Below, piece after piece: positions 6,483 to 60,154 of a stretch of 64,000 nt of DNA; within the stretch, counting starts at the first letter, position 1, and each line of letters begins with the position of its first letter. A program made the translations under genes and the position numbers. The stretch is from Candidatus Nomurabacteria bacterium. GTDB taxonomy: Bacteria; Patescibacteriota; Minisyncoccia; Phycocordibacterales; UBA9973. The notes below the pieces were generated by a model, which was given only the letters and a program-made list of their open reading frames with translations, was not told where the DNA came from and made no database searches. Where the stretch lies: contig JACQGC010000013.1 in NCBI GenBank assembly GCA_016199805.1, positions 66,327 to 130,326 of the forward strand, read 5' to 3'.

Positions 6483-6490
6483 TTTAATAA

Positions 6491-8404: not shown

Positions 8405-8516
8405 AATTAATTTTACTTATTTAGGCTTATAATCCCGACGTTTCAGTCGGGACCCGACCATAAAGCGTCGGATTTTACTAATGTTTCGCGACCACTGAAA
8501 ACTTGTATAAAGAGAG

Positions 8517-8544
8517 TATATATGATAAGTTGTAGGTATGTCAA
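8517..8544 (-). promoter_or_regulatory. near-consensus sigma70-type promoter for dnaK (TTGACA-16 nt-TATATA on the minus strand)
   Basis: Reverse complement of 8517-8544 reads 'TTGACAtacctacaacttatcaTATATA'. It lies ~105 nt upstream of the dnaK ATG and directly abuts the inverted-repeat element. Confidence 0.5.
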
Positions 8545-8615
8545 GCCCGAACACTTACTTTCAAGACGCGCCATAGGCGCATTGTACTCAATATCTTAAA
8601 AGTAAGTGTGCGGGC
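8545..8615 (+). repeat. 71-bp inverted-repeat/hairpin element, copy A (17-bp arms, 36-nt conserved loop)
   Basis: Arms 'gcccgaacacttacttt' / 'aaagtaagtgtgcgggc' pair at 16 of 17 positions. Loop 'gcgccataggcgcattgtactcaatatc'. The element ends 11 nt before the ATG of the regulator gene and is a homolog of 17236..17306. Confidence 0.7.
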
Positions 8616-8626
8616 AAGCAAAATTT

Positions 8627-9178
8627 ATGAACAATTCTTACACAAAGAAAATATTGGAGATATTGGGGAAGAAGCCAGCTGTTTCGGTGGAAGAAATACA
8701 GGAACAAATCATTTCACCCCACCTTAGTCCTCCCCTTCGCAGGGGAGGAGAAACTCGATCAAAATACGCTATCACTCGCTGCCTGAAAAATCTTAGCGAC
8801 GAAGGGCTGATAGAGCAGATTTCTTCTCCGCAAAATAAATACGCGCGTCTGACAAATGAGGGACGAAAAAAAATGCACAGTTTGGAATTGGATAACGATA
8901 CTGGCATAGTAAATACTTCTTGGGATGGACTTTGGAGAATTATTTTACTCGACCTGCCAGAGAACAGAAAAAACGAAAGAGAAAGCCTGCGTTACCTGCT
9001 TAAAAAAGCCGGTTTCGTCTGCCTGAAAAATTCCGCCTGGATATCCCCTTTCCCTTTTGAACATTTATTTATGAATATAAAAAAAGATTTAAATCTCACC
9101 ACCGAGATGATGATAATAGTCACCGAAAACATTGACCCGGAAAGTAAAAAAGTTTTGTTTGAGAATTTTGGGAAATAA
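8627..9178 (+). CDS. PaaX-like winged-helix transcriptional regulator (short form)
   Basis: N-terminal wHTH-like 'YAITRCLKNLSDEGLIEQ'. C-terminal 'WDGLWRIILLDLPENRKNERESLRYLLKKAGFVCLKNSAWISPFP' resembles PaaX_C. The ATG at 8627 is preferred over the in-stem GTG at 8606. Confidence 0.45.
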   Translation: MNNSYTKKILEILGKKPAVSVEEIQEQIISPHLSPPLRRGGETRSKYAITRCLKNLSDEGLIEQISSPQNKYARLTNEGRKKMHSLELDNDTGIVNTSWDGLWRIILLDLPENRKNERESLRYLLKKAGFVCLKNSAWISPFPFEHLFMNIKKDLNLTTEMMIIVTENIDPESKKVLFENFGK

Positions 9179-10837
9179 TTATGCGATATTTTGTTTATAA
9201 CACTCCTCACAGGCTATTTTTTTATAACCCCATTCAGGCGGATAATAGGCCATCATCTCTTTTTTACAGTAAAAACACTTATACGGGTAACCTTTTAGTA
9301 CTGCAGTCTTTCTGGCTTTTTTAAGCATTCTTAAGTCAAAATGGATTCTTGGCAAAGCAAAACCCTTCCTTTTGTGAAATTCATATTCAGCCGGAGAAAT
9401 ATTGAATCTGTATTTCGTCTCGGGGCAAATAAGAGCTTGGCTTGAAACATCAGCACCAGTATCCAAGATACTATCCGGCAACTCTAGCGAAGAAATCCCA
9501 TCTTGCGATGACAAGTCTTCTTCCGACCAGTACCCTCCTTTGCTTAAAATGAATTCCTTTTTTACTTCAGGGAAATAAACTATTGCGGTAGACAAATTAT
9601 AATCACAGATTCCCATTGAGTATGGTAAGAATTTACCGTATTCTCCCCTCTTTTCCATATCGGAAATAATTTTATTTTTCAAACTTTCATATTCTTCTTT
9701 GCTATATTCTTTATTTAAAATACAGTATTTTTTCTTTTTCAGCCCAACACACCCAAAACAATACTCGACTTCGTCGCAAATATCGAGATATTCGGAATAT
9801 CTGCCAAGAGACCATGATGAATGCTTCACATTATAGGAATAAAGCACACAACTGTTATTTCCAGAGTTTTCTACGGCGCCGAATATTCCCATCCCGTCTA
9901 TGCAATCTTTATTGCCAAGACCCCGAAGCTGGTTGCGGCAATTCTGCGAATCTTCGTAAGAAAAAACATTGATGCATTTATCGCAATTGGTCAAATAATT
10001 TCCGACAGAATTTGTGGTTTTTAGATTGAAATTTTCTCTATGTATTGCATCTTCTTTTAAAATGCTTTCAAATTCAGATTTTAGTGTTTCAATTTTTTTA
10101 TTTGAATTAAGCCCGATATTTTTCAGTTCTTTTTCGTAATCGTCTTTAGTATATTGTTGGTTGCGTATGCAATATTGTTTGTTGCGCAAGTTCCATGACA
10201 TAAAGCAGTTTTGGCAATTGCGACAATCAAAAAGAAAATACGAATCTATGCAGTCTTTACAATTTTCAGAATAATTTATGCCAAATGAGTTATGACAAGC
10301 AAAACAATCATAACAATTTTGCAAATTGAATGAATTTGCCACATCAAAGGAATCCTTGCATTCTATTACTCTATACCCATAGCTCAAATCCTCACATTTA
10401 AAAATTGACCGGGTAAGATAACAATTCTTTGAATACCAGACATCATCGCACCAATCGCAATTTTTATTGTCTTTACCGACTTGATGAGGACGCGGAACTT
10501 TTTCTTGAAGCTCTTTCAGTTGTTCAAAAAACGGCCTTGACGAATCATAGTCCTGCCCGAAAGACATCGGGTCCCAGGCATCGCTCCACCATTCGTGGGA
10601 TTTATAAATAGGATATCTGGGGCTGTTTGGTAATATCGTTATAATACTTTCACCGGATAAATCTGAAGTTCCTTTTCTAAATTTTCCAAACGGCCAAAAA
10701 GCAGAATATTGTTTCAGCCGGCAGAAAAAACATTGCTCTGGAATCTTCAAACCGACTTTTTCATACAAAAGCAAATCGCCCGAATCTATTTCAAATTCAT
10801 TTTCGCAATCTATGCATTTTTTAGTTTCAGTTTTCAT
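9179..10837 (-). CDS. cysteine-rich repeat protein, paralog B (552 aa)
   Basis: Same architecture and motifs as 1338..3122 ('NCYDCFACHNSFG', 'LRNKQYCIRNQQYTKDDYEKELK', terminal CxxC pairs). Inserted between grpE and dnaK. Confidence 0.6.
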   Translation of the reverse strand: MKTETKKCIDCENEFEIDSGDLLLYEKVGLKIPEQCFFCRLKQYSAFWPFGKFRKGTSDLSGESIITILPNSPRYPIYKSHEWWSDAWDPMSFGQDYDSSRPFFEQLKELQEKVPRPHQVGKDNKNCDWCDDVWYSKNCYLTRSIFKCEDLSYGYRVIECKDSFDVANSFNLQNCYDCFACHNSFGINYSENCKDCIDSYFLFDCRNCQNCFMSWNLRNKQYCIRNQQYTKDDYEKELKNIGLNSNKKIETLKSEFESILKEDAIHRENFNLKTTNSVGNYLTNCDKCINVFSYEDSQNCRNQLRGLGNKDCIDGMGIFGAVENSGNNSCVLYSYNVKHSSWSLGRYSEYLDICDEVEYCFGCVGLKKKKYCILNKEYSKEEYESLKNKIISDMEKRGEYGKFLPYSMGICDYNLSTAIVYFPEVKKEFILSKGGYWSEEDLSSQDGISSLELPDSILDTGADVSSQALICPETKYRFNISPAEYEFHKRKGFALPRIHFDLRMLKKARKTAVLKGYPYKCFYCKKEMMAYYPPEWGYKKIACEECYKQNIA

Positions 10838-40227: not shown

Positions 40228-40551
40228 ATGAATCAAAGAAACGAAAAAGTTGCGAATAATATAAAAGAACTCACGGCGCAGTACCTGGGACGTGAGAATA
40301 ATAAAAGCTCTCTCATCACTGTCACCGGTTGCACCGTCTCCCCTGACCTAAAAAGGGCAACTATTTTTATCACTGTCCTGCCGGATTCCAAACAAGACGC
40401 CGCTCTGTTTTTCGTAAAAAGAAATCTGAAAGACGTCCGGGAGTTTCTGAAGGAAAATCTGGCAATAAAAATAATTCCTTTCCTGGATGTGGAGATAGAT
40501 TTGGGCGAAAAGAACCGCCAGAAAATTGACGAACTGCTGCGAAAAACGTAA
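40228..40551 (+). CDS. rbfA: ribosome-binding factor A
   Basis: 'RATIFITVLPDSKQDAALFFVKRNLKDVREFLKENLAIKIIPFLDVEID'. Confidence 0.85.
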   Translation: MNQRNEKVANNIKELTAQYLGRENNKSSLITVTGCTVSPDLKRATIFITVLPDSKQDAALFFVKRNLKDVREFLKENLAIKIIPFLDVEIDLGEKNRQKIDELLRKT

Positions 40552-40584
40552 ACTGAATTTGACCCCCTCTTTGATTCTCCCCCT

Positions 40585-40612
40585 TGGCAGGGGGAGTTTG
40601 GTGGAAAGCTTA
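40585..40612 (+). terminator. rho-independent terminator after rbfA
   Basis: 'ctccccc-ttggca-gggggag' followed by 'tttggtgg'. Confidence 0.5.
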
Positions 40613-40626
40613 GGCTTTCTGTAGTT

Positions 40627-40698
40627 GGCCTGGTAGCCAAGTGGTAAGGCATTCCTCTGCAAAAGGAATATACGGCGGTTCAATTCCGCCCCAGGCCT
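40627..40698 (+). tRNA. tRNA-Cys (GCA)
   Basis: Acceptor GGCCTGG/CCAGGCC. Anticodon stem TTCCT/AGGAA with loop CTGCAAA. T-arm GGCGG-TTCAATT-CCGCC. Confidence 0.85.
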
Positions 40699-40814
40699 CA
40701 AAAAATTAAATAATTTTAATTTTTTGCTGGTTCGCCGGAGGCGAAATTGCCGATGCGAGACAAGGTCGAGCAGGCAATAGGAAAAGAAGTATGTTAGAAT
40801 ATTTTAGGATTATT

Positions 40815-40896
40815 GCTCGGGTGGCGGAATTGGTATACGCGTTCGACTTAAAATCGAATCTCGCAAGAGGTATGGGTTCGACTCCCATCCCGAGCA
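40815..40896 (+). tRNA. tRNA-Leu (TAA), long variable arm
   Basis: Acceptor GCTCGGG/CCCGAGC. Anticodon stem TTCGA/TCGAA with loop CTTAAAA. T-arm ATGGG-TTCGACT-CCCAT. Confidence 0.85.
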
Positions 40897-40918
40897 CCGG
40901 TGTTTTTTAAAAAAATAT

Positions 40919-40991
40919 GCGCCCATAGCTCAGCTGGTAGAGCAGATCCCTCTTAAGGATAAGGTCGTTGGTTCGATCCCAACTGGGCGCA
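40919..40991 (+). tRNA. tRNA-Lys (CTT)
   Basis: Acceptor GCGCCCA/TGGGCGC. D-arm GCTC-AGCTGGTA-GAGC. Anticodon loop CTCTTAA. T-arm GTTGG-TTCGATC-CCAAC. Confidence 0.85.
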
Positions 40992-41026
40992 CATTGACTA
41001 GGAAAGGCCTAGCATTAAATAATTTT

Positions 41027-41108
41027 GGGCGAGTGGTGTAATTGGTAAACACGCCAGTCTTAGGAACTGGTGGCGCAAGCCGTGAGGGTTCAAGTCCCTC
41101 CTCGCCCA
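41027..41108 (+). tRNA. tRNA-Leu (TAG), long variable arm
   Basis: Acceptor GGGCGAG/CTCGCCC. Anticodon stem CCAGT/ACTGG with loop CTTAGGA. T-arm GAGGG-TTCAAGT-CCCTC. Confidence 0.85.
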
Positions 41109-41166
41109 CAAAATAGTGGAATATAGCAGACTTGACATTTATGGCACAATATGCTATACTTCACAC

Positions 41167-41928
41167 ATGAAGAAAATAAATAACAAATCAATAAATTTGA
41201 GCTTGAAAGTGCTGACTATTTTGGCTTTTGGCCTGATTTTTATCCCTTTTAACAAGGTTTCCGCTCAATCTGCCGGCTACAATTATGTTTACAGTAGCAA
41301 TACCGGACAGCAAGTCTACAACCCGGTGGATATAAACAATCCGAGTCCATCTATCGACGCCATCAGCCCAAAATCCAGCAACTTGGGTGTAGGTACAAAG
41401 ACTATCACCATTACCGGTAGTGGCTTTGTACCCAGCTCTGTCGCCAGAATAAATTCTGCCAACCGTACTACGACATTCATAGACCGCTCTCACCTCTTGG
41501 TGCAGATTACCGGCAATGACACTTATGCGTACAAAACCAACGGAGGATTTTATATCACTGTGTACAACGGTGCGCCGGGTGGAGGATTTTCCAACGCAGT
41601 TTTCTTTATTGTAAATAGCAACACCTCAGTAGCGGCTACAAACAATGCCAACAACTACAATTACGGCTCTGCCACAACCAACTACACTGACACGAACACA
41701 AACCAAAACACAAACGATACATTTACCGATACACCAAACGATGCAACCAATCCTGACAGCGGAAACGCCCTCGCCTCCAATGCCATCTTCGGGTCAAATA
41801 GTTTCTTACCTTCCGGCTTGATACAATGGATTCTGTTTGCGATATTTGTCCTCATCATAGTCATCTTAGCCAGAAGGATTTTCGGAGCCAAAGAGAACTA
41901 CGAGACTTCGCCTTTGAAACACGAGTAA
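41167..41928 (+). CDS. cell-surface protein with IPT/TIG domain, signal peptide and C-terminal TM anchor
   Basis: Start at 'MKKINNKSINLSLKVLTILAFGLIFIPF'. 'PSIDAISPKSSNLGVGTKTITITGSGFVPSSVARIN' is IPT-like. N/T-rich linker. C-terminal TM 'IQWILFAIFVLIIVILA'. Confidence 0.5.
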   Translation: MKKINNKSINLSLKVLTILAFGLIFIPFNKVSAQSAGYNYVYSSNTGQQVYNPVDINNPSPSIDAISPKSSNLGVGTKTITITGSGFVPSSVARINSANRTTTFIDRSHLLVQITGNDTYAYKTNGGFYITVYNGAPGGGFSNAVFFIVNSNTSVAATNNANNYNYGSATTNYTDTNTNQNTNDTFTDTPNDATNPDSGNALASNAIFGSNSFLPSGLIQWILFAIFVLIIVILARRIFGAKENYETSPLKHE

Positions 41929-42023
41929 TGGAATTATTCTCCTCTTGAGGAGTACCCTTTAGGGGGAGGTGGATGCATTTCCACCCCGGCGCAAGCGCCA
42001 CCCCTCAACGAGGGGAATCATAC

Positions 42024-42060
42024 GAAAAAGTCAGCCCGAAGGGGTTGACTTTTTCGTTTT
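42024..42060 (+). terminator. rho-independent terminator after the IPT/TIG gene
   Basis: 'aaaaagtcagccc-gaag-gggttgac-tttttcgtttt'. Confidence 0.6.
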
Positions 42061-42145
42061 GTTGTGATACAATGAGTAGGCACTAGTTATTCGAAATCAG
42101 AATAAGTTTTAGGTTTTGCGCTTACGGGCGCGAGGAGAAAAACAT

Positions 42146-43042
42146 ATGACTAGTAGAATCCTGGGCGCGGTGTGTGCCCTTTTCGTGCTCGCAAGCGCCT
42201 ACATGGTGTTCAGCGAGTTTTCTTGGTCATGGTCTTGGCTACTCCTAGTAGTCTGGACCATCGTCCTTAGTAGTTGGTACATGGGCGGATGGAAGAAAAT
42301 CGGGGGAGATGAGCTTGGCTGGAGAGCAGCCATTCTCTTACTCGGACAACGAACTTCCGGAGAAGTTGGTGAAGGTTGGCAATGGGTGCCGTTCCCTTTC
42401 GGGATAAAGCCGGTAGATTGTCGTGAGACAATCATAAAGCTTGACGCACTGGATGTTTTCACATCAGACACAGTGCCGGTAAAAATCGACGGTAGTATTG
42501 CAATAGAAATCGTCGACATAAACCTGTACCTTAGCGTTAATCCAGCCGGTCTTAAACAGGGATTGGACGATCTTTGGGACGAAGCGATTCGTAATAAGGT
42601 CGCAACAATTGCCTTGGATCAATTGCTACTGTCAAAAGAAACCCTAGAAAAACACGCACACATTGTTCTCAACCCTGAGGATGAGGAAAAAAAGCCACGT
42701 AATCGCTGGGGTTTTAAGGTGACAGGAGTTATTGTCTCCAAAATCTCGCCCGATCAAAAGATGACTGACGACTTAGAACTTGCCGCGCGTGAAGAACGCC
42801 AGCGTAAAGGTCAGCGAGTGCAGGCCAAACACCAGGCGGAATTGATCAAATTCTTTTCGGGTCATGAAAAGCTAGGAACCGATGGACCTGAAGGACCTGG
42901 ACTTTCCGCCGAGCTGGCCTATGAGGCATCGCTGATCCACATGGACAAGGCCGAACCGAAGAAACTTTCTTCGAGCACGTTTGGGCTTGATCCGGCAATT
43001 GTCACTGCGATTGTCGACGAATTGAGAAGGAGGAGACCATGA
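42146..43042 (+). CDS. SPFH/band-7 (stomatin/prohibitin/HflK-like) membrane protein, in a GC-rich island
   Basis: Two N-terminal TM helices. 'PVKIDGSIAIEIVD' and 'WGFKVTGVIVSKISPDQKMTDDLELAAREERQRKGQRVQAKHQAE' are SPFH signatures. Strong SD 'gaggag' 8 nt before the ATG. Local GC ~55% versus ~35% in flanking regions. Confidence 0.6.
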   Translation: MTSRILGAVCALFVLASAYMVFSEFSWSWSWLLLVVWTIVLSSWYMGGWKKIGGDELGWRAAILLLGQRTSGEVGEGWQWVPFPFGIKPVDCRETIIKLDALDVFTSDTVPVKIDGSIAIEIVDINLYLSVNPAGLKQGLDDLWDEAIRNKVATIALDQLLLSKETLEKHAHIVLNPEDEEKKPRNRWGFKVTGVIVSKISPDQKMTDDLELAAREERQRKGQRVQAKHQAELIKFFSGHEKLGTDGPEGPGLSAELAYEASLIHMDKAEPKKLSSSTFGLDPAIVTAIVDELRRRRP

Positions 43043-43527
43043 CACCATCTTCACCAACGACGCCAACCCAAAAACCCATTCGCCTCGGGACTTGGATAGG
43101 GGTAATCGGGGTTTTAATCTTTATTGTAATGGTAGTTGTTTTCTCTCTAGCTAGCTCATCAAGAACAACAGTAGAAAATAAAGCCGAAGCGGAAAATGCA
43201 GCTGCACAAGAAATAGCTGCCGCGTACGCCCGCAGTCTGGCTGCCCAGGAAGCCGCGCAGGTGATTCCCGAAGTACCGGGATTCCCTCGCGCTGGCGACG
43301 GATACCCAACCAAGGACAAGCCTACTAAGGCTTGGATTGACCCCAACAAGACCCACACTCGGGCTACGGCGGCAGTACAATACTGCGTCGCTGATCCCGA
43401 AAACAGCGAGATGTGCTGGACCGACCATATGGACGGTCATGATGTAGGGTTTCGTAATTTCCCGGCTGGACCATACCTCGTCTCCCCGCTTGGAGATGGC
43501 AAGGTTTTCTTCCACTGGTGGCAGTAA
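43039..43527 (+). CDS. hypothetical membrane-anchored protein (162 aa), translationally coupled to the SPFH gene (ATGA overlap)
   Basis: P/T-rich N-terminus, TM 'WIGVIGVLIFIVMVVVFSLA', Ala-rich segment, Cys pair 'YCVADPENSEMCW'. Same elevated GC as the SPFH gene. Confidence 0.45.
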   Translation: MTPSSPTTPTQKPIRLGTWIGVIGVLIFIVMVVVFSLASSSRTTVENKAEAENAAAQEIAAAYARSLAAQEAAQVIPEVPGFPRAGDGYPTKDKPTKAWIDPNKTHTRATAAVQYCVADPENSEMCWTDHMDGHDVGFRNFPAGPYLVSPLGDGKVFFHWWQ

Positions 43528-43634
43528 TTCTTCGCTAGTAGTAATGGCCGTAATCACGTTGGCCACGTAACACAAAAGGGGCGCTCGTTTACGAGACGCC
43601 CCTTTAGCATTTCTATTTAGTATTTTCCCCTTAC

Positions 43635-43973
43635 TTACTCGCTTAGATGCACTTCCCCTGTCTCCGGAGTCACTCCCTTTATGCCAAAAGTATTTATAAC
43701 TATGTTGAGTATCGTAAAGACTCCGAGCATAATAGTAATCCCGATGACACCCCAGAGCATGTGGCTTTTGCCTGAAGTTTTTTTCTCTTCGTTTTCTTGA
43801 TTCATTATAAACTCGAGAACGCCATAGAGAAAATAAACCACAGCTAGCGCAAATAAAAGTCCAATCAGCGGGTTGATAATCAGATTATCAACATTGGCGA
43901 TGAATCCGTTCAGGCTCGTGCTGGGTGCAGCATAGGCTATCTTTGTGCTAAAAAAACTAAGCAGTAAATCCAT
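43635..43973 (-). CDS. small two-TM pilin-like protein (VirB2/TrbC-like topology), array member 6 (112 aa)
   Basis: 'LIGLLFALAVVYFLYGVLEFIMNQENEEKKTSGKSHMLWGVIGITIMLGVFTILNIVINTF' fits the family pattern TM1 - charged loop - TM2. Confidence 0.45.
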   Translation of the reverse strand: MDLLLSFFSTKIAYAAPSTSLNGFIANVDNLIINPLIGLLFALAVVYFLYGVLEFIMNQENEEKKTSGKSHMLWGVIGITIMLGVFTILNIVINTFGIKGVTPETGEVHLSE

Positions 43974-43977
43974 ATTT

Positions 43978-44415
43978 TTATTGAACTACGGGTACTGTAG
44001 GAAGCGTAATGTTTGCACTGTTACCGACATTGAAAAATGTGTTTTTCAAAACATTTACAAGTCCCCACATACCGATAATCACAGCCAAACCGATGATGCC
44101 GTAAATAATTCTGTCTCGTCCTCTTGTCTTTGCCTCTTCGTCATTGGCAACAACGAAGGTAATGACTCCCCAGACAAAGTAAACGACTCCTAGGGCTATC
44201 AACACAGGAACTACAGCATTTAGAAATACTCCGATTCTGCATAGTAATCCAAACAAAGTTGCGTTTTGTCCGGCATAGGCTGCAGGATCGCAAGATGTAG
44301 TACTACCATTTATAGTAACCTGCGCGAATGCGACGATAGGCGCTAAAGCGAAAAACACACCCGACAATACCATTAAATTCTTTTTCATACGATTTTGCGA
44401 AATCGTGTCGCGCAA
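43978..44415 (-). CDS. small two-TM pilin-like protein, array member 5 (145 aa)
   Basis: Signal peptide. 'VPVLIALGVVYFVWGVITFVVANDEEAKTRGRDRIIYGIIGLAVIIGMWGLVNVLKNTF'. Confidence 0.45.
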   Translation of the reverse strand: MRDTISQNRMKKNLMVLSGVFFALAPIVAFAQVTINGSTTSCDPAAYAGQNATLFGLLCRIGVFLNAVVPVLIALGVVYFVWGVITFVVANDEEAKTRGRDRIIYGIIGLAVIIGMWGLVNVLKNTFFNVGNSANITLPTVPVVQ

Positions 44416-44525
44416 CCGTCCTTTAAGCGCGACGCAATTAACGAACTTATAATAAATGCGACCTAATAATAATTAAACTAATAATGTTACTTAATTATAC
44501 CCCTTGCCCAAATATGAAGCAAATT

Positions 44526-45233
44526 CTACTTTTGAGGCGGAACCACAGTAGGAAGCACAGAACTCCCTGTCTTGATTGCAAAAGTAGTCTGTAGAATATT
44601 AACCAAACCCCAAACCGAAAGCATGACCGCTAGGGCAATTATCCCCCAAATCATAAACTGCTTACCTTGCGCCCTTTTGGCTTCCTCGTCGGCATCAAGA
44701 ATGAGAAACTTTACCACTCCCCAAATAAACATAACCACAGCCAGCGCAAAAATGAATGGAATGATCGAGTTGCCTATGATACAGGTAAAGAAATCAAGAT
44801 AGTCGGAAAGTTTTGGTTTTCCTGCACCCAAGTCAGGACAACCGGAACCGGAATTTTTTGTAGTGGTCACTAAATTACCAAGGTCGGGAGTTTGACCGAC
44901 TCCCAAGCCGGTTGTTCCGCCTAAGCCGAATGTCTGATTTAGGATAGCTACCAATCCCCAGATGCTGACTATGACCGCCAAACCGATGATGCCGTAAATA
45001 ATTCTGTCGCGGCCATTCTTTTTAGCTTCCTCTCCATCAGCAATGAAATATTGCACCATTCCCCAGATAAAATATAAGACGCCAAATGCAACCAAAACCG
45101 GTAAAATAGCTTTAAAAAGATCGCTAATCTTGGTAATCACATCCGTCAAACCAGTGGCTTGAGCGGAAGCAATAAACGGTACAAAAACTGCAAGTAAAAG
45201 TATTGTAATAAATTTTAATAAATTTTTTTTCAT
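44526..45233 (-). CDS. tandemly duplicated two-TM pilin-like protein, array member 4 (235 aa; two modules)
   Basis: Module 1 '...YFIWGMVQYFIADGEEAKKNGRDRIIYGIIGLAVIVSIWGLVAILNQTF'. Module 2 '...MFIWGVVKFLILDADEEAKRAQGKQFMIWGIIALAVMLSVWGLVNILQTTF'. Confidence 0.45.
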   Translation of the reverse strand: MKKNLLKFITILLLAVFVPFIASAQATGLTDVITKISDLFKAILPVLVAFGVLYFIWGMVQYFIADGEEAKKNGRDRIIYGIIGLAVIVSIWGLVAILNQTFGLGGTTGLGVGQTPDLGNLVTTTKNSGSGCPDLGAGKPKLSDYLDFFTCIIGNSIIPFIFALAVVMFIWGVVKFLILDADEEAKRAQGKQFMIWGIIALAVMLSVWGLVNILQTTFAIKTGSSVLPTVVPPQK

Positions 45234-45234
45234 G

Positions 45235-45537
45235 TTATTTAGGTAATAATTTATTAAGGTCAGAGTTATTTATGTAGTTGTTGTCGTCCAAATTAAAAGT
45301 ATTAACAAGAATAAATACAAGTCCCCATACACTAATAATCACAGTCAGACCGATAATGCCATAGATAATCCCGTCTTTCCCTTTCTTTTTTGCTTCTTCG
45401 CTATCACCAATCATATATTGCACTATACCCCAAACAAGATAAACCACACCCAGAGCAACCAAGACAGGAATAACAGCTCCAAATATCTCATTTATTTTAC
45501 ACAACACACTAAGTATACCGGGATTACATGTACTCAT
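45235..45537 (-). CDS. small two-TM pilin-like protein, array member 3 (100 aa)
   Basis: 'IPVLVALGVVYLVWGIVQYMIGDSEEAKKKGKDGIIYGIIGLTVIISVWGLVFILVNTF'. Confidence 0.45.
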   Translation of the reverse strand: MSTCNPGILSVLCKINEIFGAVIPVLVALGVVYLVWGIVQYMIGDSEEAKKKGKDGIIYGIIGLTVIISVWGLVFILVNTFNLDDNNYINNSDLNKLLPK

Positions 45538-45563
45538 AACAAATTAAGTTAAATTAATAATAT

Positions 45564-45932
45564 TTACAAAGCCAAAACGGTGGCAGATATCATCTGCGCT
45601 ATCGCCCACGCACCCAATAATATCGCCGCACCTATCATTGTATAGAGCAAGGCGTCTTTGGCGTGAGTAATCTTTTCCGAGTTTCCTCTGGCAAAAACAA
45701 ACAGAAAACCGCAGTAAATGACGGCCAGCGCCACGACGGGAATTCCTATTTTGAGCATACCTTCCAGGATGCTTTGAATGAGTCCGGGTAAAGTGTTGTT
45801 GGTATTTAGTGGGTTACATATGACTCCCTTGGAAGGATCACAAGCGGGGTCATTGGCAAGAGAAATAACAGGTAAAACAGAAACATACGCGAGTACCGCC
45901 AACTTCTGCCAATTTTTTTGAATGAAATTCAT
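45564..45932 (-). CDS. small secreted two-TM pilin-like protein with Cys pair, array member 2 (122 aa)
   Basis: Signal peptide, 'ACDPSKGVIC', TM1, loop 'ARGNSEKITHAKD', TM2. Confidence 0.4.
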   Translation of the reverse strand: MNFIQKNWQKLAVLAYVSVLPVISLANDPACDPSKGVICNPLNTNNTLPGLIQSILEGMLKIGIPVVALAVIYCGFLFVFARGNSEKITHAKDALLYTMIGAAILLGAWAIAQMISATVLAL

Positions 45933-45960
45933 TGTTCTTTAATTATATACCTTTTTTCTG

Positions 45961-46371
45961 CTAAAAACCAATCCAGGCGCCACTATAGCCCAAAATCGAT
46001 AATAATGTCTTGACTATAAGCCAGGCCGCGGCGGCGAGGATGAGGCCAATCACCGCGTTGGTAAAGACTTTTTTGGCTATACCCCTCTTCTCGGTGCTGC
46101 CTCCGGAGCTTACCAGCTCGAATCCGGCATACACAAACATTATGGCCGCAATCGGTATGGCCATGAAATAAAGGGCAAAATTTATGAGCGTGTTTACCAG
46201 GGTCATCAGCGCATTAAAATCACAGGGGCCGGGATTGCTTTTTGTTAAACATGGCACCAGTCCGGAAGTCGGAGGAGTGTTCGCCAGAGAAAAAGCCGGA
46301 ACGGCCAGCAACACAGCAAGCACAATTACGAATGTATAATTACGAATTACGAATTTTTTTACTTTTTGCAT
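45961..46371 (-). CDS. small secreted two-TM pilin-like protein with Cys pair, array member 1 (136 aa)
   Basis: Signal peptide, 'PCLTKSNPGPC', TM1, loop 'SSGGSTEKRGIAKK', TM2. Confidence 0.4.
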   Translation of the reverse strand: MQKVKKFVIRNYTFVIVLAVLLAVPAFSLANTPPTSGLVPCLTKSNPGPCDFNALMTLVNTLINFALYFMAIPIAAIMFVYAGFELVSSGGSTEKRGIAKKVFTNAVIGLILAAAAWLIVKTLLSILGYSGAWIGF

Positions 46372-55197: not shown

Positions 55198-56520
55198 CTA
55201 TTCTCGGGGTCCCGACTCAAGGTCGGGAAAGACTTTTTCGGCAACCTTATAAGCTTCCCCTGCTCCCATCGTTACAAATACGTCTTTGGGACCCAGCTTC
55301 ATCTTGGAAATCCAGTCTTCGGCCACCGTGAAGTCCTCAAAAGCCACAGCTTCACCCCTATGCGCCCGTATTGCCTCGGCCAATTTCGTACTTGAAACCT
55401 CCGGGTCCGGGTTTTCTCGGGCAAAGTATATGGGCAGCAGGAAAACATTGTCCGCTTGGTCGAAACAGGTCACGAACTCATCAAACAGCGCTTTGGTTCT
55501 ACTATAGAGGTGTGGCTGGAAGAGAACCGTGATATTTTTTGTACCTTTGGGGTAAACCTCCCGCAAAGCTTCCAAGCTAGCCCGAACTTCCGTCGGATGA
55601 TGGGCATAGTCGTCGTAAACAATAGTGCCTTCCCTCGTCATCCCCTTTTTCTCGAGCCGGCGCCAGGTGCCTTCAAAACCAGCCAAGGAAATACTGGCCT
55701 GATCTGCCGGAATATTTAAAATTTCAGCTAAAGCCATGGCGCAAGCTGCGTTCATCCTGTTGTGAATACCTGGCACGGACAATTTTGGAACCTTATCCAA
55801 ATAAGCCGTGTAATCCATAATCTTTATATTCTCCCCATAGGTCTGACCTATGGGTAAATCTTTCGGGTTGCAAATCACAAAACTCTTTGTCTGGTTTATG
55901 AGACTACTAAAAGCACTTTGTATGTCTGCTAAGTCTTTATAATAGTCCAAATGGTCTGGCTCCATATTCGTAATAACCAAAACTGTCGGATTTATATTTA
56001 AAAATGATCTTTCATATTCGCAGGCCTCCACCACGAAGTAATTCCCCTTACCCACGACTAAGTTGGATTTGGATTCTTTTAAAAGACTGCCAACGATTAT
56101 CGATGGATCAAGTTTTGCATCCATTAGCATTTTGCCAATCATGGCTGTAGTTGTCGTCTTTCCATGGGTACCCGAAACAGCAATTGTATATTTGTTGTCC
56201 GTCACATAGTGCAACATTTGCGGGTAGCTTTTATATGGAATACTGGAATTTTTAATTTGCTCAAAAAGTTTCGGGTCATAGTGCGGAATGGCAATCGTGT
56301 AAACAATCAAATCCACACCAGCAGGTATTAATTCAAAACCCTGGCCGATAGTTATCTTTATTCCAAGGCCCATCAACTCGCGAGTCAATTCTCCTTCCGA
56401 CATATCAGAACCGGAAACCTCTTTACCCTCCAAAAACATCAACCGGGCAATAGCCGAGATACCAATTCCACCAATCCCCACAAAGAAAACTTTTTTAATT
56501 TTTGATAAATCTAAATTCAT
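55198..56520 (-). CDS. murC: UDP-N-acetylmuramate--L-alanine ligase
   Basis: 'VFFVGIGGIGISAIARLM', 'IAVSGTHGKTTTTAMIG', 'DYAHHPTE'. Confidence 0.9.
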   Translation of the reverse strand: MNLDLSKIKKVFFVGIGGIGISAIARLMFLEGKEVSGSDMSEGELTRELMGLGIKITIGQGFELIPAGVDLIVYTIAIPHYDPKLFEQIKNSSIPYKSYPQMLHYVTDNKYTIAVSGTHGKTTTTAMIGKMLMDAKLDPSIIVGSLLKESKSNLVVGKGNYFVVEACEYERSFLNINPTVLVITNMEPDHLDYYKDLADIQSAFSSLINQTKSFVICNPKDLPIGQTYGENIKIMDYTAYLDKVPKLSVPGIHNRMNAACAMALAEILNIPADQASISLAGFEGTWRRLEKKGMTREGTIVYDDYAHHPTEVRASLEALREVYPKGTKNITVLFQPHLYSRTKALFDEFVTCFDQADNVFLLPIYFARENPDPEVSSTKLAEAIRAHRGEAVAFEDFTVAEDWISKMKLGPKDVFVTMGAGEAYKVAEKVFPDLESGPRE

Positions 56521-57041
56521 AAATTTCTTATTTCTTTTAAAATACGATTCGCTATTTGTTCTGGAGCCAGTTCTTCTGAATTAAAAATTGGAACATTTAG
56601 ATGCTTATTTTTAGTATGGATACGATAATTTCTTTCTATGCGAGTTTTGGTAATTTTTGGTTTTCCAATTAGTCCTGGTCTTGCCAAAACCCTTTCCTGA
56701 AGTAAAGACTTCGACGCATATAATTGATATATAAAAATATCAGCACAATATTTTTTAGCTATTTTTTTAAAAGTTTCTATTTGCTCCTTTTTCATTCCTT
56801 GTTCTATAATCACGTTAATACCTTGTTTTAAATATTCCTGTGTCATTGCCAATACTACATTGCGACTAATTTCGTTGTCTGCGGGATTTCTTTTAAAATC
56901 TGACAGAAAACGCTTTATTTTGTCGAGACCAATACAAGATGTACGTTTTAATTTTAAATGTAAAATATTTGCTACGGTGGTTTTTCCTGAACCCATGGGG
57001 CCATCAATTAAAATTATAAAAGATTTATTTTTTAACTTCAT
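56517..57041 (-). CDS. P-loop kinase-like protein (AAA/zeta-toxin-like fold), unknown substrate
   Basis: Walker A 'IDGPMGSGKTTV'. Confidence 0.45.
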   Translation of the reverse strand: MKLKNKSFIILIDGPMGSGKTTVANILHLKLKRTSCIGLDKIKRFLSDFKRNPADNEISRNVVLAMTQEYLKQGINVIIEQGMKKEQIETFKKIAKKYCADIFIYQLYASKSLLQERVLARPGLIGKPKITKTRIERNYRIHTKNKHLNVPIFNSEELAPEQIANRILKEIRNL

Positions 57042-57643
57042 ATTTTTATATTTAATTTTTTAAGCTCATTTTTTAGTTGTTCGACTGATTTAAAGACAAT
57101 TCCGCTTAAACCATACTCTATAGCTTTTTTAATATTATTCTCCCCATCATCTATGAAAATAGCTTCTTCTGGATTAATATTAAACTTTTCTAGCGTTATA
57201 TCAAAGATTTCCTTATTTGGTTTTTTTAATCCAAGCTCCCAAGAAAACGAAACAACATCAAAAATGTTTCTTATATCCCAATTGTCCAACACGACCGATT
57301 CAAAAACTGTAGTGTTTGAAATAAAACCCAATTTGTAATTTTCCTTTAGTTTAAGTAGTAAATCTTTCATACCTGAGAATATTGTTGCTTTTTCAATTCC
57401 TTGTCTCAATAAATTAATAACATATTTTATATTTTCTTCATTTCGTTCAATTTTAAATTCTTTGAGAAAATTTTGAGCCATTTCTTTTTCGGATTTCCAC
57501 TCCTTAAGTTGAATACTAGTTTCATATAAATGCATAAAGTCAGATGTTTTTTCAATTCCAAATTTATCTTGCAGGGATTTAGAAATACTTATGTTTTTTG
57601 TACCTAATGTCTCCCATAAATCAAAAATAATCATCTTTATCAT
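57038..57643 (-). CDS. HAD-superfamily hydrolase (subfamily IA-like)
   Basis: Motif I 'IIFDLWETL', 'FISNT', 'KKPNKEIF', 'FIDDGENN'. Confidence 0.7.
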   Translation of the reverse strand: MIKMIIFDLWETLGTKNISISKSLQDKFGIEKTSDFMHLYETSIQLKEWKSEKEMAQNFLKEFKIERNEENIKYVINLLRQGIEKATIFSGMKDLLLKLKENYKLGFISNTTVFESVVLDNWDIRNIFDVVSFSWELGLKKPNKEIFDITLEKFNINPEEAIFIDDGENNIKKAIEYGLSGIVFKSVEQLKNELKKLNIKI

Positions 57644-57650
57644 ATTATTG

Positions 57651-58223
57651 TTATTTAAAACTAATTACTGTAATCAATCTTTCGGATGTCTTATCTCTGC
57701 GAAAACTCGGTAACGATGTGTCTTCGTATGTATTTCTCGAGTCAAATTCTACACCCTGTGGCAATAAAGACATAATAGCATCTTTAAATAAAAAGGTTAT
57801 TTTTTCTTCATTATACGTGAAGTATTTTTCTCCGAATTTTTCTTGTATTTTATCAAAACAAAAATCTTTCTTGATTTCAAATGAATGCATAAAAGGACCC
57901 ACGAAAACATGTAAATTTTCTTGATTGAATTCCTTGGACATCTTTTCAACTAACCCCAAACAAAGCCCCCGCCAGCCGATATGGGCAATTCCGATTTTCT
58001 CTCCATCGTTGAAACAAATAGGCGCGCAATCGGCTGTTCTCATACCTAGTGAAAACTTTATATTTTTTGTAATTAAAGCGTCACAATTTTTAACATCTTC
58101 TTTGCCTGTAATAATTTCCACTATATTATCACCATGAATTTGCCTAGGTAAAATTATGTCCCTTGGAGCATTTTGTGATTTTGTATAGATAGAAACATTG
58201 ATTTTGTCCATTTTATTTTTCAA
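57651..58223 (-). CDS. YfiH/PgeF-family (DUF152, laccase-domain) purine nucleoside / peptidoglycan-editing enzyme
   Basis: 'QIHGDNIV', 'DALIT', 'LGMRTADCAPI', 'GIAHIGWRG', 'PSFRRD'. Confidence 0.75.
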   Translation of the reverse strand: MKNKMDKINVSIYTKSQNAPRDIILPRQIHGDNIVEIITGKEDVKNCDALITKNIKFSLGMRTADCAPICFNDGEKIGIAHIGWRGLCLGLVEKMSKEFNQENLHVFVGPFMHSFEIKKDFCFDKIQEKFGEKYFTYNEEKITFLFKDAIMSLLPQGVEFDSRNTYEDTSLPSFRRDKTSERLITVISFK

Positions 58224-58788
58224 TTATTTTAAACTCTCCCTCTGCAAGAGCAAAAATTGGCAAATCTTCTTTGTATTTTTTTAATTCCGTAAGAGCTTTC
58301 TTCCATTCGACTTTGTAGTTGGGTGATTGAAAATGAACTATGACCTTAGTGTCAGTCAGACCCAGTCCTTCCTTTATGCAAAGGGATTCAATATCATAAT
58401 AATATTTCGACAGCATATAAGCTCCAGCCGAAGAACCAGCAATGTTTTTACCTTCTAATAATTTCTCCCATCCTTTGTGTTTTAAAAGCCTTTCCAGTAA
58501 AAGTTTCGTTTCCCCACCTCTAAAATAGATTGCATCTGCCCATTTTAATTCCTCAATAAAATTTTCTTCAGTGGCACACTTCATATCTATTTTTGTTTCC
58601 GTTATGTTTGTTTCCATATAGTTTTTATCTTGTAAAAATGACTTCTCCCAATTTTCTCTCGGTCTTGAGAAAAGACATTCTAATAATTTTACCGGTCCTG
58701 GTTTGTTTTCAATTAGAGACATAAAAAATGCCTTTCCTCCATCTTTTGCTTTGTGTGGATATCCACCAGCTAAAATATATTTAATCAT
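58213..58788 (-). CDS. S51-family peptidase (PepE/cyanophycinase-like, class I glutamine amidotransferase-like fold)
   Basis: 'AIYFRGGETKLLLERL', nucleophile region 'IAGSSAGA'. Confidence 0.6.
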   Translation of the reverse strand: MIKYILAGGYPHKAKDGGKAFFMSLIENKPGPVKLLECLFSRPRENWEKSFLQDKNYMETNITETKIDMKCATEENFIEELKWADAIYFRGGETKLLLERLLKHKGWEKLLEGKNIAGSSAGAYMLSKYYYDIESLCIKEGLGLTDTKVIVHFQSPNYKVEWKKALTELKKYKEDLPIFALAEGEFKIIEK

Positions 58789-58789
58789 T

Positions 58790-60154
58790 TTATTTCAAAC
58801 TCTTGATTATTTTCATAAATTGGTCGCCGCGGTCGTATTCGTTTTGAAACATACCAAAAGACGCAAAGGCCAGGGAAAAGAGAATAATATCTTCGCGTGA
58901 GGCAAGACCTAACGCAGTCTTTACTGCATCTTTTAAATCTTTTGCCTTTTCATTCATAATTCGTAATTTATAATTCGTAATTAATTTATCCGTTCCCGTT
59001 CCCGGAATCATTACAACTGCTTTGCAGTATTTATTTACATCCTTCACAAAACCAGCTAAATCCAGCTTTTTGTCTGCCCCACCACAAATTAGGATAATAT
59101 TTTTACCACTGAGGTCTTGCCTCAGTGCCTCAATGCCTGCCATCGTGGCTTCTGGGGTGGTGGCGTTGTTATCATTGTATATTTTTACTCCTTTGACTGT
59201 CTTTATGTATTGTAATCTGCCTTCCAATCCTTTGAAATTTTCTACAGCTTTCCTTATTTTTTCAGCAGGAATTTTAAAAAGCTTTCCTACTTCCACCGCA
59301 CAGGCCAGATTTTCTCTTTGGAATTCTCCGGGAACAATAAATTTGAAATTGCTTACATTCTTTGAATTTGCCATTATTAATTTACTTTTTAAATTTTTTG
59401 GAATTAACTTCTTGACTCCAGAACGGATTATTAACACGTCTCTCTTTTTCTGGTACTTAAAAATATTTGCCTTGTCGGCAAAATAATCTCCCAGGCTATT
59501 TTTATAGTAATTCATATGGTCCGGCATGAAAGATGTGAAAACGGAAATATGCGGAGAAATTTTTGCCTCACCAAATCCTTGCAGCTGCCAGGAGTCCAGC
59601 TCGCATACCAAAATATCACCTTTCTTTACTTTTTTAAGGAGAGGAAGAGTTGCCAGTCCTCTTACGTTTCCGCCAAGATATACTTTTCTTCCCAAGGACT
59701 TCTCGTTTTGCTTTAAAATCTCATAGATTAAGGCTGTGGTCATTGATTTCCCCCTGGTACCCGTTATCCCAATGATTTTTATTTCCGGCGCGCATTTTGC
59801 AAACAAAGACACGTCCATCTCTATCGGAATTTTGTGTTTTTTTGCTTCACTTATATAAATAGAATCAAACGGCACTCCGGCCGCTTTCAAAACCATATCG
59901 CAATTCTGAAAATCTTCCAGCCGGTGCTCACCCAATACATATTTTATATTTTTAAACTTTTTTAATTTATTTAAAGATTCTTTGAGTTGTTCATTTGTTT
60001 TCAAATCGGTAATAGTCAATTTCGCTCCGCATTCAGCCAGAAAAACAGCATCCCCAATACCCCGTCCGAGCAAACCCAACCCCATTATGGTTATCTTTTT
60101 GTTTTTGAAAAAATTTTTATTCATAAAGTTTTTTGAATTCTTCCATATCGTCAA
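58790..60154 (-). CDS. murD: UDP-N-acetylmuramoylalanine--D-glutamate ligase
   Basis: 'ITIMGLGLLGRG', 'IIGITGTRGKSMTTALI', C-terminal Mur ligase domain. Confidence 0.9.
   Translation of the reverse strand: MTIWKNSKNFMNKNFFKNKKITIMGLGLLGRGIGDAVFLAECGAKLTITDLKTNEQLKESLNKLKKFKNIKYVLGEHRLEDFQNCDMVLKAAGVPFDSIYISEAKKHKIPIEMDVSLFAKCAPEIKIIGITGTRGKSMTTALIYEILKQNEKSLGRKVYLGGNVRGLATLPLLKKVKKGDILVCELDSWQLQGFGEAKISPHISVFTSFMPDHMNYYKNSLGDYFADKANIFKYQKKRDVLIIRSGVKKLIPKNLKSKLIMANSKNVSNFKFIVPGEFQRENLACAVEVGKLFKIPAEKIRKAVENFKGLEGRLQYIKTVKGVKIYNDNNATTPEATMAGIEALRQDLSGKNIILICGGADKKLDLAGFVKDVNKYCKAVVMIPGTGTDKLITNYKLRIMNEKAKDLKDAVKTALGLASREDIILFSLAFASFGMFQNEYDRGDQFMKIIKSLK

Follow-up and report, generated by a model that had tools for sequence, protein, structure and literature searches.

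The SPFH/Band-7 gene and its coupled neighbour at positions 42146-43527 of the analysed window (64,000 nucleotides of a Candidatus Nomurabacteria genome, contig JACQGC010000013.1, positions 66,327 to 130,326 of the forward strand) probably constitute a self-contained operon that has long resided in a fixed slot of Paceibacteria genomes, a slot reshuffled by recombination, and their products would combine an SPFH cage with a surface-displayed partner. This region had originally been predicted to be a recent horizontal acquisition. Our results argue against that prediction: the slot is filled in at least nine related loci, which have kept the Shine-Dalgarno (SD) sites, the promoter and the 3' hairpin, and amino-acid composition accounts for ~73% of the GC excess. 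Horizontal exchange is part of the history of the family, without recent insertion of an island in this genome.

An SPFH protein coupled to a single-pass membrane protein

The first gene (42146-43042, plus strand) encodes a 298-aa SPFH/Band-7 protein, stomatin/QmcA-like, which matches Pfam PF01145 (Band_7) over residues 67-231 (51.3 bits, above the cut-off of 23.6; E 1.9e-13) and shares 100% identity with an NCBI entry labelled 'Candidatus Nomurabacteria'. In a profile search against the PDB, QmcA was the best match among solved structures (9.5e-13), followed by stomatin. The AlphaFold2 model, of moderate confidence (pLDDT 69), has strands at residues 78-122 and 190-202 and a long helix at 204-238, with the SPFH domain at approximately residues 78-202; its two N-terminal hydrophobic helices (residues 2-24 and 27-53) form a predicted membrane hairpin. 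Foldseek searches with this model retrieved HflK/C, stomatin, QmcA or QmcA-YbbJ, and prohibitin at E-values of 3e-9 to 1e-6, those of HflK/C, stomatin and QmcA-YbbJ lying between 3e-9 and 2e-7. By analogy with such proteins, the product could assemble into a homo-oligomeric ring or cage.

The second gene (43039-43527, plus strand) is coupled to the first by an ATGA overlap (43039-43042). It encodes a partner of 162 aa with a brief Pro/Thr-rich N-terminal tail, a single helix at residues 16-73 (transmembrane segment and stalk) and a seven-stranded β-domain at residues 86-161, modelled by AlphaFold2 with a pLDDT of 90. The original description of an SPFH/band-7 gene followed by an ATGA-coupled 162-aa membrane partner with a Cys pair was accurate: the Band_7 match, the one transmembrane helix and the two cysteines, C116 and C126, were all recovered. 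The partner matches no Pfam, NCBIfam or PADLOC family, with just weak sub-threshold matches to transmembrane or linker regions, and its β-domain has no significant fold match; NCBIfam and PADLOC contain no family for the SPFH protein either. An identification as NfeD was rejected, as there was no match to Pfam NfeD (PF01957) at E<=0.1 and no NfeD or OB fold among the top Foldseek matches. Among 1.84 billion representatives, 67 relatives of the C-terminal domain were found at E<1e-3 (clusters at 50% identity). In every case the domain lies on the C-terminal side of transmembrane helices or signal peptides, and it comes after signal peptides or extracytoplasmic domains. From this sequence context, the domain is predicted to be extracytoplasmic; both cysteines lie within it, and C116 and C126 probably form a disulfide in this ectodomain.

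Signals and structured elements around the pair

The TIG-like gene upstream ends in an intrinsic terminator (42022-42057, plus strand; 16-bp stem, then a T-run) that keeps 80-87% nucleotide identity in the related loci L003, L012 and L017. Between its stop codon and this terminator lies an 83-nt GC-rich multi-hairpin with terminal inverted repeats (element X; 41936-42018, plus strand), and the sequence 41929-42062 folds at -70.5 kcal/mol (z -7.5). Element X is single-copy within the window. Its relatives are located downstream of the pair, as an 83%-identical copy in L018 and an X-like copy in L001, and we treat it as context rather than as a proven member of the operon. A promoter-like sequence, TTGACT-17-TACAAT with a TG extension (42045-42073, plus strand; 10/12 match), lies inside the 3' arm of the terminator. 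The identical sequence recurs upstream of SPFH in L003, L012, L005 (twice), L016, L017 and L019, and it presumably acts as a promoter.

A 5'-UTR hairpin with a GCGC-loop-GCGC core follows (42114-42135, plus strand; fold z -2.4), its 3' arm overlapping the first bases of the SD site. In L001, L005, L012, L016, L017, L019 and L023, the position immediately before the SD is taken by a GC-rich hairpin of differing sequence. The SD of the SPFH gene is GAGGAG N8 ATG (42132-42137, plus strand), and that of the partner, AAGGAGGAG N3 ATG (43027-43035, plus strand), lies within Arg codons of the SPFH C-terminus; the strong sites of both genes are retained across all orthologous loci. It had been proposed that both genes use strong SD sites (gaggag N8 ATG) that are rare in the host. 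Both sites are indeed strong and GGAG-type motifs precede only ~10 of the 64 ORFs of the window, but the N8 spacing is confined to the SPFH gene. Strong SD sites are also found on ordinary genes of the window (RbfA, Ham1 and the T4 coupling protein).

Downstream of the partner, a conserved, operon-specific 3'-UTR motif, GGCC-N-ATC-[RYG(N)-TGGCCA-(N)CRY] (43545-43570, plus strand), has a single copy in each slot of every CPR locus (two copies in L005, with its two slots), and the window contains no further one. In a hand-registered alignment, compensatory changes were seen at three of its five stem pairs, with 97.6% of cells paired. A GC-rich hairpin (43575-43605) is then shared between the SPFH operon (plus strand) and a convergent pilin array (minus strand); its position is kept in all loci, its 98-nt fold has a z of -4.6, its T-run is on the minus strand, and it is likely a bidirectional terminator. 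The hairpins reported on both sides of the pair were confirmed, as was the nearby four-tRNA cluster (40627-41109). An Rfam search at E<=1 over 40500-44500 returned tRNAs only, the UTR elements and element X matching no known family.

GC content and codon usage

The pair has a GC content of ~50.7-50.8% against 41.4% for the window (SPFH CDS 49.3%, partner CDS 53.0%; 50.2% for the span 42100-43620). It is the top 1.4-kb stretch of the window for GC (1.4-kb windows: mean 41.3%, sd 3.7%; 0.06% reach that level). The peak noticed originally is therefore real, but the proposed contrast of 53-60% inside with ~30-35% outside is overstated: the genes alongside have 41-43% (TIG-like 43.4%, pilin 41.3%), GC across 60-nt blocks ranges from 37% to 67%, and the two 'outside' blocks used for the comparison (27% and 32%) were chosen low spots.

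The GC excess sits at GC1 and GC2, and GC3 is 0.49/0.50 in the pair, compared with 0.41 on average across the window (sd 0.087; z ~1). The two proteins are Ala/Pro/Trp-rich and Lys/Asn/Ile-poor. Starting from 41.6% for the CDSs of the window, the amino acids of the pair lead to an expected 48.3%, compared with 50.8% observed. Amino-acid composition accounts for ~73% of the excess, and this largely compositional origin of the GC shift counts against a recent foreign source. The residual excess stems from a bias toward codons ending in C and toward AAG. In synonymous codon usage, SPFH and its partner rank as the two most atypical of the 64 ORFs (z -4.6 and -3.8). The compositional scan suggested along with the prediction accordingly had a mixed outcome, with a GC peak and atypical synonymous codons on one side, and an unremarkable GC3 and ordinary tetranucleotide and dinucleotide signatures on the other. 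Strand bias was ruled out as a source of the odd codon usage, since IF2 and RbfA on the same strand are not atypical. The codon bias of the pair has the same direction as that of the ribosomal-protein, S1 and RpoA genes, with only moderate likeness to this highly expressed set (ranks 11 and 14 of 64 by codon log-likelihood ratio toward the ribosomal-protein/S1 set). An ancient transfer, ameliorated only in part, may also fit the atypical synonymous codon usage.

A fixed slot in related genomes

In at least nine related Paceibacteria loci, an SPFH-partner pair occupies the same slot (L001, L003, L012/L014, L005-7, L015/16, L023 and L025-27), and one side of the same arrangement is visible on the short contigs L017, L018 and L019. 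The shared gene order is IF2-RbfA-tRNAs-TIG-[SPFH-partner]-pilin array-SBP-MTase-GyrA, and the tRNA cluster is syntenic too (conserved in L003 and L012). Two comparisons on which a foreign origin had been staked turned out against a recent acquisition: the relatives of the pair are CPR genes that keep the synteny and fill the corresponding slot, and this slot was occupied in every related locus recovered from the databases, none being empty. Neither an integrase nor flanking direct repeats of >=14 nt were found at the locus, the neighbours being TIG-like and pilin genes. Integration targeted to the tRNAs was rejected on the basis of the syntenic cluster and the absence of flanking repeats. A scan of genome contigs with a four-sequence alignment returned two species representatives and the metagenome scan one locus, so that either the SPFH-partner family is rare or peptide patterns capture it poorly; L023 and L025 were recovered by the partner-domain search.

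Compared with L001, L003 and L012, the window shows amino-acid identities of 91% for GyrA, 86-88% for ClpB, 75-78% for IF2, 70-72% for SBP and 64-74% for the first pilin. SPFH, by comparison, has 40-43%, and BLAST does not detect the partner. Divergence is fairly high in the flanking TIG and pilin genes, too. In the nearest locus, L018, the pair region has 73% nucleotide identity and the flanks 80-83%; as the pair is present there at this level of identity, it is older than the split from L018. The closest relatives, L018 and L019, are both CPR loci, and the divergence of the pair roughly tracks that of the flanks. In all the related loci, the pair is richer in GC than its flanks, with differences reaching 20 GC points. 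In L016 and L025, GC3 is 0.66-0.71 in the pair versus 0.32-0.42, and such gaps, beyond the reach of composition or expression, would call for continuing import or biased gene conversion.

Recombination and sharing across phyla

The partner of L001 is a chimera, its N-terminal 60 aa being 65% identical to L003 and its C-terminal domain 51% identical to L016, and GC along the gene climbs from 0.40 to 0.65. Partner types 1, 3 and 6 are each paired with differing SPFH types. L005 contains two slots in tandem, and its promoter and 3' elements are present in duplicate; the first gene of the second slot has an hhalign probability of 0.24 against SPFH and no Pfam match, and BLAST-matches SPFH-like ORFs of L024. 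The SPFH protein of the window has a mosaic pattern (residues 1-150 nearest to clade C, 251-298 nearest to clade A) that hints at recombination, a pattern explained equally well by lineage-specific divergence of the termini. Judging from these sequences, the slot appears to be a recombination-prone, hypervariable cassette position whose alleles are richer in GC than their hosts.

The SPFH of L008 is 82% identical in amino acids to that of L005. The partner protein of L008 (P0048) is also encoded on contig L020, whose GltD shares 84-85% identity with proteins of Bryobacteraceae; GC3 in L020 is 0.62-0.67 in the pair versus 0.74-0.89 in the core. One SPFH clade has apparently been exchanged between CPR and a Bryobacteraceae-like Acidobacterium. 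The Acidobacterial pair neighbours PIN and UPF0175/DUF3368 toxin-antitoxin modules as well as RhuM, and the L001 pair is flanked by a Fic/RhuM gene and an IS element.

The units resemble integron-type cassettes in being compact, in their conserved structured 3' element and in the tandem slots of L005, and a 35-bp direct repeat that includes a hairpin stands on both sides of the Acidobacterial pair. In contrast to integron cassettes, the CPR unit brings its own promoter. Integron-like attC sites were rejected, as neither an integrase nor an attI or attC consensus turned up and the 35-bp repeats occur only in Acidobacterial contigs. Exchange looks like homologous recombination via the conserved flanks.

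Discussion

A purely vertical history, in which a fast-evolving housekeeping SPFH operon was shaped by composition, high expression and relaxed or diversifying selection without gene flow, is unlikely. It would agree with the conserved synteny, the strong promoter and SD sites, the codon bias directed like that of ribosomal-protein, S1 and RpoA genes, and the divergence of the TIG and pilin flanks. However, it does not account for the chimeric L001 partner with its GC step, the varied combinations of SPFH and partner types or the tandem slots of L005. The 82% identity between CPR and Acidobacterial SPFH proteins, in a pair that is compositionally foreign in the Acidobacterium, also argues against it, as do GC3 gaps of up to 0.3 (L016, L025), which exceed expression bias. 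A patchy, HGT-prone distribution has been described for the SPFH family (PMC2636767, PMC13086221).

If the pair is a long-standing, recombining operon, as we favour, its products might function as follows. SPFH would be anchored through its transmembrane hairpin and, like QmcA and stomatin, oligomerize into a ring or cage at the cytoplasmic side of the membrane. The cage would surround a membrane patch containing the single-pass partner, whose stalk helix would display the variable, probably disulfide-bonded β-domain on the cell exterior. We infer the contact between SPFH and partner, their topology and their expression level. The pair could work as an SPFH-NfeD pair does, with the NfeD OB-fold swapped for an exchangeable ectodomain. 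In QmcA(YbbK)-YbbJ and the SPFH1/stomatin-NfeD operons, the SPFH gene is likewise followed by a co-oriented, coupled gene for a membrane protein of ~150 aa (Hinderhofer et al., 2009, PMC2636767; PDB 8z5g), an arrangement of adjacent co-oriented genes that is kept in all our loci. QmcA-YbbJ is described as a cytoplasmic-side cage of 26 heterodimers (Tan et al., 2024, as cited in PMC13086221), and a cytoplasm-facing SPFH domain is predicted in the pair of the window as well. Unlike the SPFH-NfeD pairs, our partner lacks an NfeD domain and has a seven-stranded β-domain, predicted to be extracytoplasmic, that is exchangeable among loci, and SPFH is anchored by two helices that form a hairpin, with the Trp-rich sequence 'FSWSWSW' at the turn.

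The pair can also be compared with the VirB2-like pilin arrays of Patescibacteria (PMC12102498), to which it is always convergent, with a terminator common to it and 4-6 PF18895 pilin-like genes. Like these arrays, it is a variable envelope gene set in CPR genomes; unlike them, it is neither a pilin nor a T4SS component, and Acidobacterial contigs carry the pair without pilins. The functional link between the pair and the pilin array is only positional.

The variability of the ectodomain suggests a role in recognition or conflict at the cell surface. One could go further and propose an anti-phage, abortive-infection or exclusion module, in which an invader would be sensed or blocked through the variable ectodomain, with the SPFH cage gating an effect at the membrane. 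Such a module would fit the hypervariability and horizontal exchange of the slot, the toxin-antitoxin and RhuM neighbours of the Acidobacterial copy and the Fic/RhuM gene and IS element beside the L001 pair, but we consider it rather improbable. PADLOC-DB 2.0 contains no family matching either protein at E<=1, no copy of the pair was found on IMG/VR viral contigs, no effector domain is recognizable, and the CPR flanks consist of surface and pilin genes, not defence genes. Within the literature library searched, nothing relevant tied SPFH to Patescibacteria or to defence islands. Equally speculative is a broader scheme in which a combinatorial cassette of SPFH scaffold and exchangeable ectodomain, kept rich in GC by continual inter-lineage recombination, would be shared by Paceibacteria episymbionts and Acidobacteria (maybe their hosts) and, next to the pilins, determine recognition or immunity at the cell surface, the conserved 5' and 3' RNA hairpins being regulators or recombination anchors.

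A recent foreign island beside the tRNA cluster, retaining the GC content and SD usage of a donor, is very improbable and largely refuted: the GC maximum, the most atypical synonymous codons among the 64 ORFs, the rarity of strong SD sites and the movement of the family across phyla speak for it, but the slot is occupied in all related loci next to a syntenic tRNA cluster, integrase, att-like repeat and empty site were all looked for and none was found, the CPR loci have kept SD sites and UTR elements, GC3 and oligonucleotide signatures are unremarkable with the GC excess mostly amino-acid-driven, and the nearest relatives are CPR loci with divergence similar to that of the flanks. The intuition behind the original prediction nevertheless retains some merit, since atypical codons, GC above the flanks, extra divergence, recombination and crossing between CPR and Acidobacteria were all observed; what does not survive is the recent insertion.

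For genome scanning, this case indicates that contrasts in GC and SD usage are by themselves insufficient to call a recent island. Here, the GC signal derives mostly from the composition of the proteins, and the SD sites, conserved across loci, are an ancient feature of the operon. The pair represents a two-gene SPFH module with a non-NfeD partner, whose domain belongs to an unannotated ectodomain family of 67 clusters (50% identity). To our knowledge, there is hardly any experimental handle on the interactions of CPR cells with their hosts and phages. A hypervariable, recombining surface module at a fixed site by VirB2-like pilins, with one clade common to a Bryobacteraceae-like Acidobacterium, is a candidate determinant of specificity or conflict in CPR.

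A conserved operon and its expression signals

The gene content put forward in the original prediction was borne out: a Band_7 (SPFH) gene (42146-43042; Pfam E 1.9e-13) shares an ATGA overlap with a gene (43039-43527) encoding a 162-aa membrane partner with one transmembrane helix and a cysteine pair (C116 and C126). Each protein has a 100% identical NCBI counterpart on a 135-kb 'Candidatus Nomurabacteria' contig. The bounding hairpins, an upstream terminator at 42022-42057 (16-bp stem) and a downstream hairpin at 43575-43605, were also recovered, as was the nearby four-tRNA cluster (40627-41109). The strong Shine-Dalgarno (SD) sequence ascribed to both genes is present as GAGGAG N8 ATG before the SPFH gene, but the partner has AAGGAGGAG N3 ATG. 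Most of the 64 ORFs indeed have A/T-rich leaders that lack an SD; about 10 carry a GGAG-type motif.

The SD sites are kept in every locus compared, and both the promoter embedded in the upstream terminator and a GC-rich hairpin directly abutting the SD are conserved among loci. A 3'-UTR motif (43545-43570, with an equivalent position in all CPR loci) was found solely after SPFH-partner pairs; it consists of a short covarying stem around an invariant TGGCCA, with compensatory changes in 3/5 pairs of a hand-registered alignment. The invariant hexamer is itself a palindrome of the restriction-site kind, and pairing of an upstream GGCC with the loop could give a pseudoknot-like arrangement. Upstream of the pair, at 41936-42018 of the window, is an 83-nt GC-rich element bounded by terminal inverted repeats and containing three internal hairpins (fold z -7.5); its counterparts in the related loci L018 (696-792, 83% nucleotide identity) and L001 (9508-9546) are downstream of the pair. 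It has no Rfam match and occurs once in the 64 kb, and might represent either a structured RNA or a MITE-like small mobile element.

Composition of the pair

The earlier observation of a GC-rich SPFH pair is partly confirmed. The pair (50.7% GC; SPFH CDS 49.3%, partner CDS 53.0%) has the highest GC of all 1.4-kb windows of the stretch (mean 41.3%, sd 3.7%), and the span 42100-43620 reaches 50.2% against 41.4% for the whole window. The values first quoted (53-60% inside, 30-35% outside) were exaggerated: inside blocks span 37%-67%, and the outside blocks cited (27% and 32%) are local minima in genes averaging 43.4% and 41.3%. GC3 of the SPFH and partner genes (0.49/0.50) is above the mean of 0.41 (sd 0.087; z ~1), and GC1 and GC2 are raised by about 2 sd. 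When the amino-acid sequence of the pair was re-coded with the synonymous usage of the window, the predicted GC was 48.3%, compared with 41.6% for the window CDSs and 50.8% observed in the pair; amino-acid composition (Ala, Pro and Trp up; Lys, Asn and Ile down) therefore accounts for ~73% of the excess. The rest is a preference for TTC, TAC, ATC, CAC, GAC and AAG, as a result of which no other gene among the 64 is as atypical in synonymous usage as these two (z -4.6 and -3.8). This preference points in the same direction as the ribosomal-protein/RpoA cluster and S1, and the pair ranks 11 and 14 of 64 by log-likelihood ratio towards that set. Promoter, SD sites and codon bias together suggest that the pair is highly expressed. 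Neither its tetranucleotide nor its dinucleotide signature stands out. In composition, the most extreme part of the window is a low-GC block (56250-58800, ~30% GC) containing ORFs 56517-57041 and 57038-57643 (GC3 0.20-0.22, z ~-2.3), next to a Cu-oxidase_4 family protein (57651-58223).

The pair occupies a conserved slot

Word-indexed searches recovered few homologs (SPFH n=9, partner n=2). The gene order of the window, IF2-RbfA-tRNA(Cys, Leu, Lys, Leu)-TIG-like-SPFH-partner-pilins-SBP_bac_1-methyltransferase-GyrA, with 4 to 6 PF18895 pilin genes, is repeated in L003 (Paceibacterota), L012/L014 (Patescibacteria, Hainich groundwater) and L001 (Pacebacteria). The TIG-pair-pilin arrangement is also found on the shorter contigs L005-7, L015/16, L017, L018, L023 and L025-27. 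In the window, the array comprises six small minus-strand genes (43635-46371), which converge on the SPFH operon and keep their order among relatives; three scanned genes match PF18895 (T4SS_pilin/VirB2-like) and the other three resemble them in having a two-TM pilin-like sequence. Elsewhere in the window, positions 3130-5316 hold a gene resembling that for the VirD4/T4 coupling protein.

The original prediction of a recent horizontal acquisition by this genome is not supported by this comparison, as the slot is occupied in all related loci recovered, the tRNA cluster is syntenic and neither flanking repeats nor an integrase were found around the pair in the window. For the latter two reasons the tRNA cluster is conserved backbone, and we reject it as an integration site. 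The cluster is inverted in L003 (6640-7017), and in L012 a 216-aa ORF (8273-8923) lies between tRNA-Lys and tRNA-Leu(tag). The borders of the slot are insertion-prone, since L001 carries an rve-family transposase between the TIG-like gene and SPFH (6479-7739) and a Fic/RhuM gene between partner and pilins (9553-10539).

Variability and recombination within the slot

The slot is hypervariable and recombining. Between the window and L001/L003/L012, amino-acid identity is 91% for GyrA, 86-88% for ClpB, 75-78% for IF2, 78-79% for RbfA, 70-72% for SBP and 64-74% for pilin1, but 40-43% for SPFH, and partner similarity is undetectable by BLAST. In the closest locus, L018, nucleotide identity is 73% over the pair region and 80-83% in the flanks; the pair of the window is therefore older than the split from L018.

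At least six types of partner C-domain can be distinguished, all with a common layout (transmembrane helix, charged linker, small β-domain), and these pair with differing SPFH types across loci. Type 1 accompanies SPFH clade B in the window, a BLAST-unrelated Band_7 protein in L023 and a clade C-like SPFH in L025; type 2 accompanies clade A in L001 and clade C in L016; type 3 accompanies clade A in L003 and L012. The L001 partner is chimeric, its N-terminal 60 aa being 65% identical to L003 and its C-domain 51% identical to L016, with a GC step from 0.40 to 0.65 along the gene. L005 (1522-4930) contains two tandem slots, with a 55-nt fragment of a pilin 3' end duplicated along with the promoter, the 3' motif and the terminator; the second slot holds a divergent SPFH-like 329-aa gene and a 163-aa type 6 partner, whose C-domain is 61% identical to that of L017. 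Partner modules can evidently be arrayed, as in the 57% GC contig L024 (1-2384), where a split SPFH-like gene precedes two tandem partner-type genes with type 3 and type 1 C-domains, respectively. The second is 40% identical to the partner of the window overall and 49% over the C-domain.

Compositional anomaly and sharing between phyla

In every CPR locus examined the pair exceeds its flanks in GC, and the window shows the mildest anomaly. GC3 (SPFH/partner) is 0.67/0.71 in L025 (flanks 0.33-0.41), 0.66/0.67 in L016 (0.32-0.42), 0.59/0.69 in L017 (0.33), 0.49/0.60 in L005 (0.21-0.41), 0.37/0.42 in L012 (0.19-0.32), 0.38/0.37 in L003 (0.20-0.38) and 0.34/0.52 in L001 (0.25-0.39). Clade C SPFH also occurs on the ~60% GC contigs L008-L011 and L020-22 (45 sample blocks). 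L020, which has the partner protein P0048 in common with L008, encodes a GltD 84-85% identical to Bryobacteraceae (Acidobacteriota) proteins, and the SPFH genes of L008 and the CPR locus L005 share 82% identity at the amino-acid and 75% at the nucleotide level. On these contigs the pair neighbours PIN, UPF0175/DUF3368 toxin-antitoxin and RhuM genes. A 35-bp direct repeat, GTTCCCAGTATYGCTATTCTGGGAAGTCCCGGAAA, exactly brackets it in L008 (1003-1037 and 2373-2407), and also in L009 and L010; the copies are 97% identical, contain a 7-bp stem and 10-nt loop, and may represent either an att-like site or an RNA element common to the 5' and 3' sides. Here the GC3 of the pair (0.62-0.67) is lower than that of core genes (0.74-0.89). 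In composition, then, the pair appears foreign to both phyla, a pattern that would fit continuing exchange, GC-biased gene conversion at a putative recombination hot spot, or both.

Family, fold and possible role

In profile searches against PDB sequences, the SPFH protein matched QmcA first (9.5e-13), then stomatins and, weakly, HflC. In its AlphaFold2 model (pLDDT 69), two hydrophobic helices at the N-terminus are followed by an α/β SPFH domain and a 35-residue helix, with Foldseek matches to HflK/C, stomatin, QmcA-YbbJ and prohibitin (E 3e-9 to 1e-6). The charge distribution would place the N-terminus and SPFH domain in the cytoplasm. The partner model (pLDDT 90) comprises one helix over residues 16-73 and a 7-strand β-domain (86-161), without a significant match in PDB or BFVD (best E 0.1-0.2, cupin or jelly-roll-like) and without a Pfam model for the C-domain. 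An NfeD identity was rejected, as no NfeD OB-fold appeared among the fold matches. An exhaustive HMMER search with residues 68-162 retrieved representatives of 67 clusters (E<1e-3). All of these carry the domain at the C-terminus, behind transmembrane helices or signal peptides, so that an extracytoplasmic location is most likely; in one protein the preceding domain is an FGE-sulfatase domain and in another a DUF4852 domain. Sampled short single-TM members adjoin Band_7 genes in the CPR slot (L023, L025-27) or SPFH-like ORFs (L024).

A defence role is speculative: there was no PADLOC match, viral copy or effector domain. VirB2-like pilin arrays are abundant in Patescibacteria (PMC12102498), and the fixed position of the pair beside one may be functionally relevant; on the acidobacterial contigs, however, the pair is present without pilins. 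Horizontal transfer is an already known tendency of SPFH operons (PMC2636767; PMC13086221), and recombination and transfer between phyla do belong to the history of the present family. The pair is an SPFH two-gene module with a non-NfeD partner. By analogy with stomatin and with QmcA-YbbJ (Tan et al. 2024, as cited in PMC13086221), the SPFH protein may form a membrane-anchored ring enclosing the transmembrane helices of the partner, whose stalk would present an exchangeable ectodomain at the cell surface.
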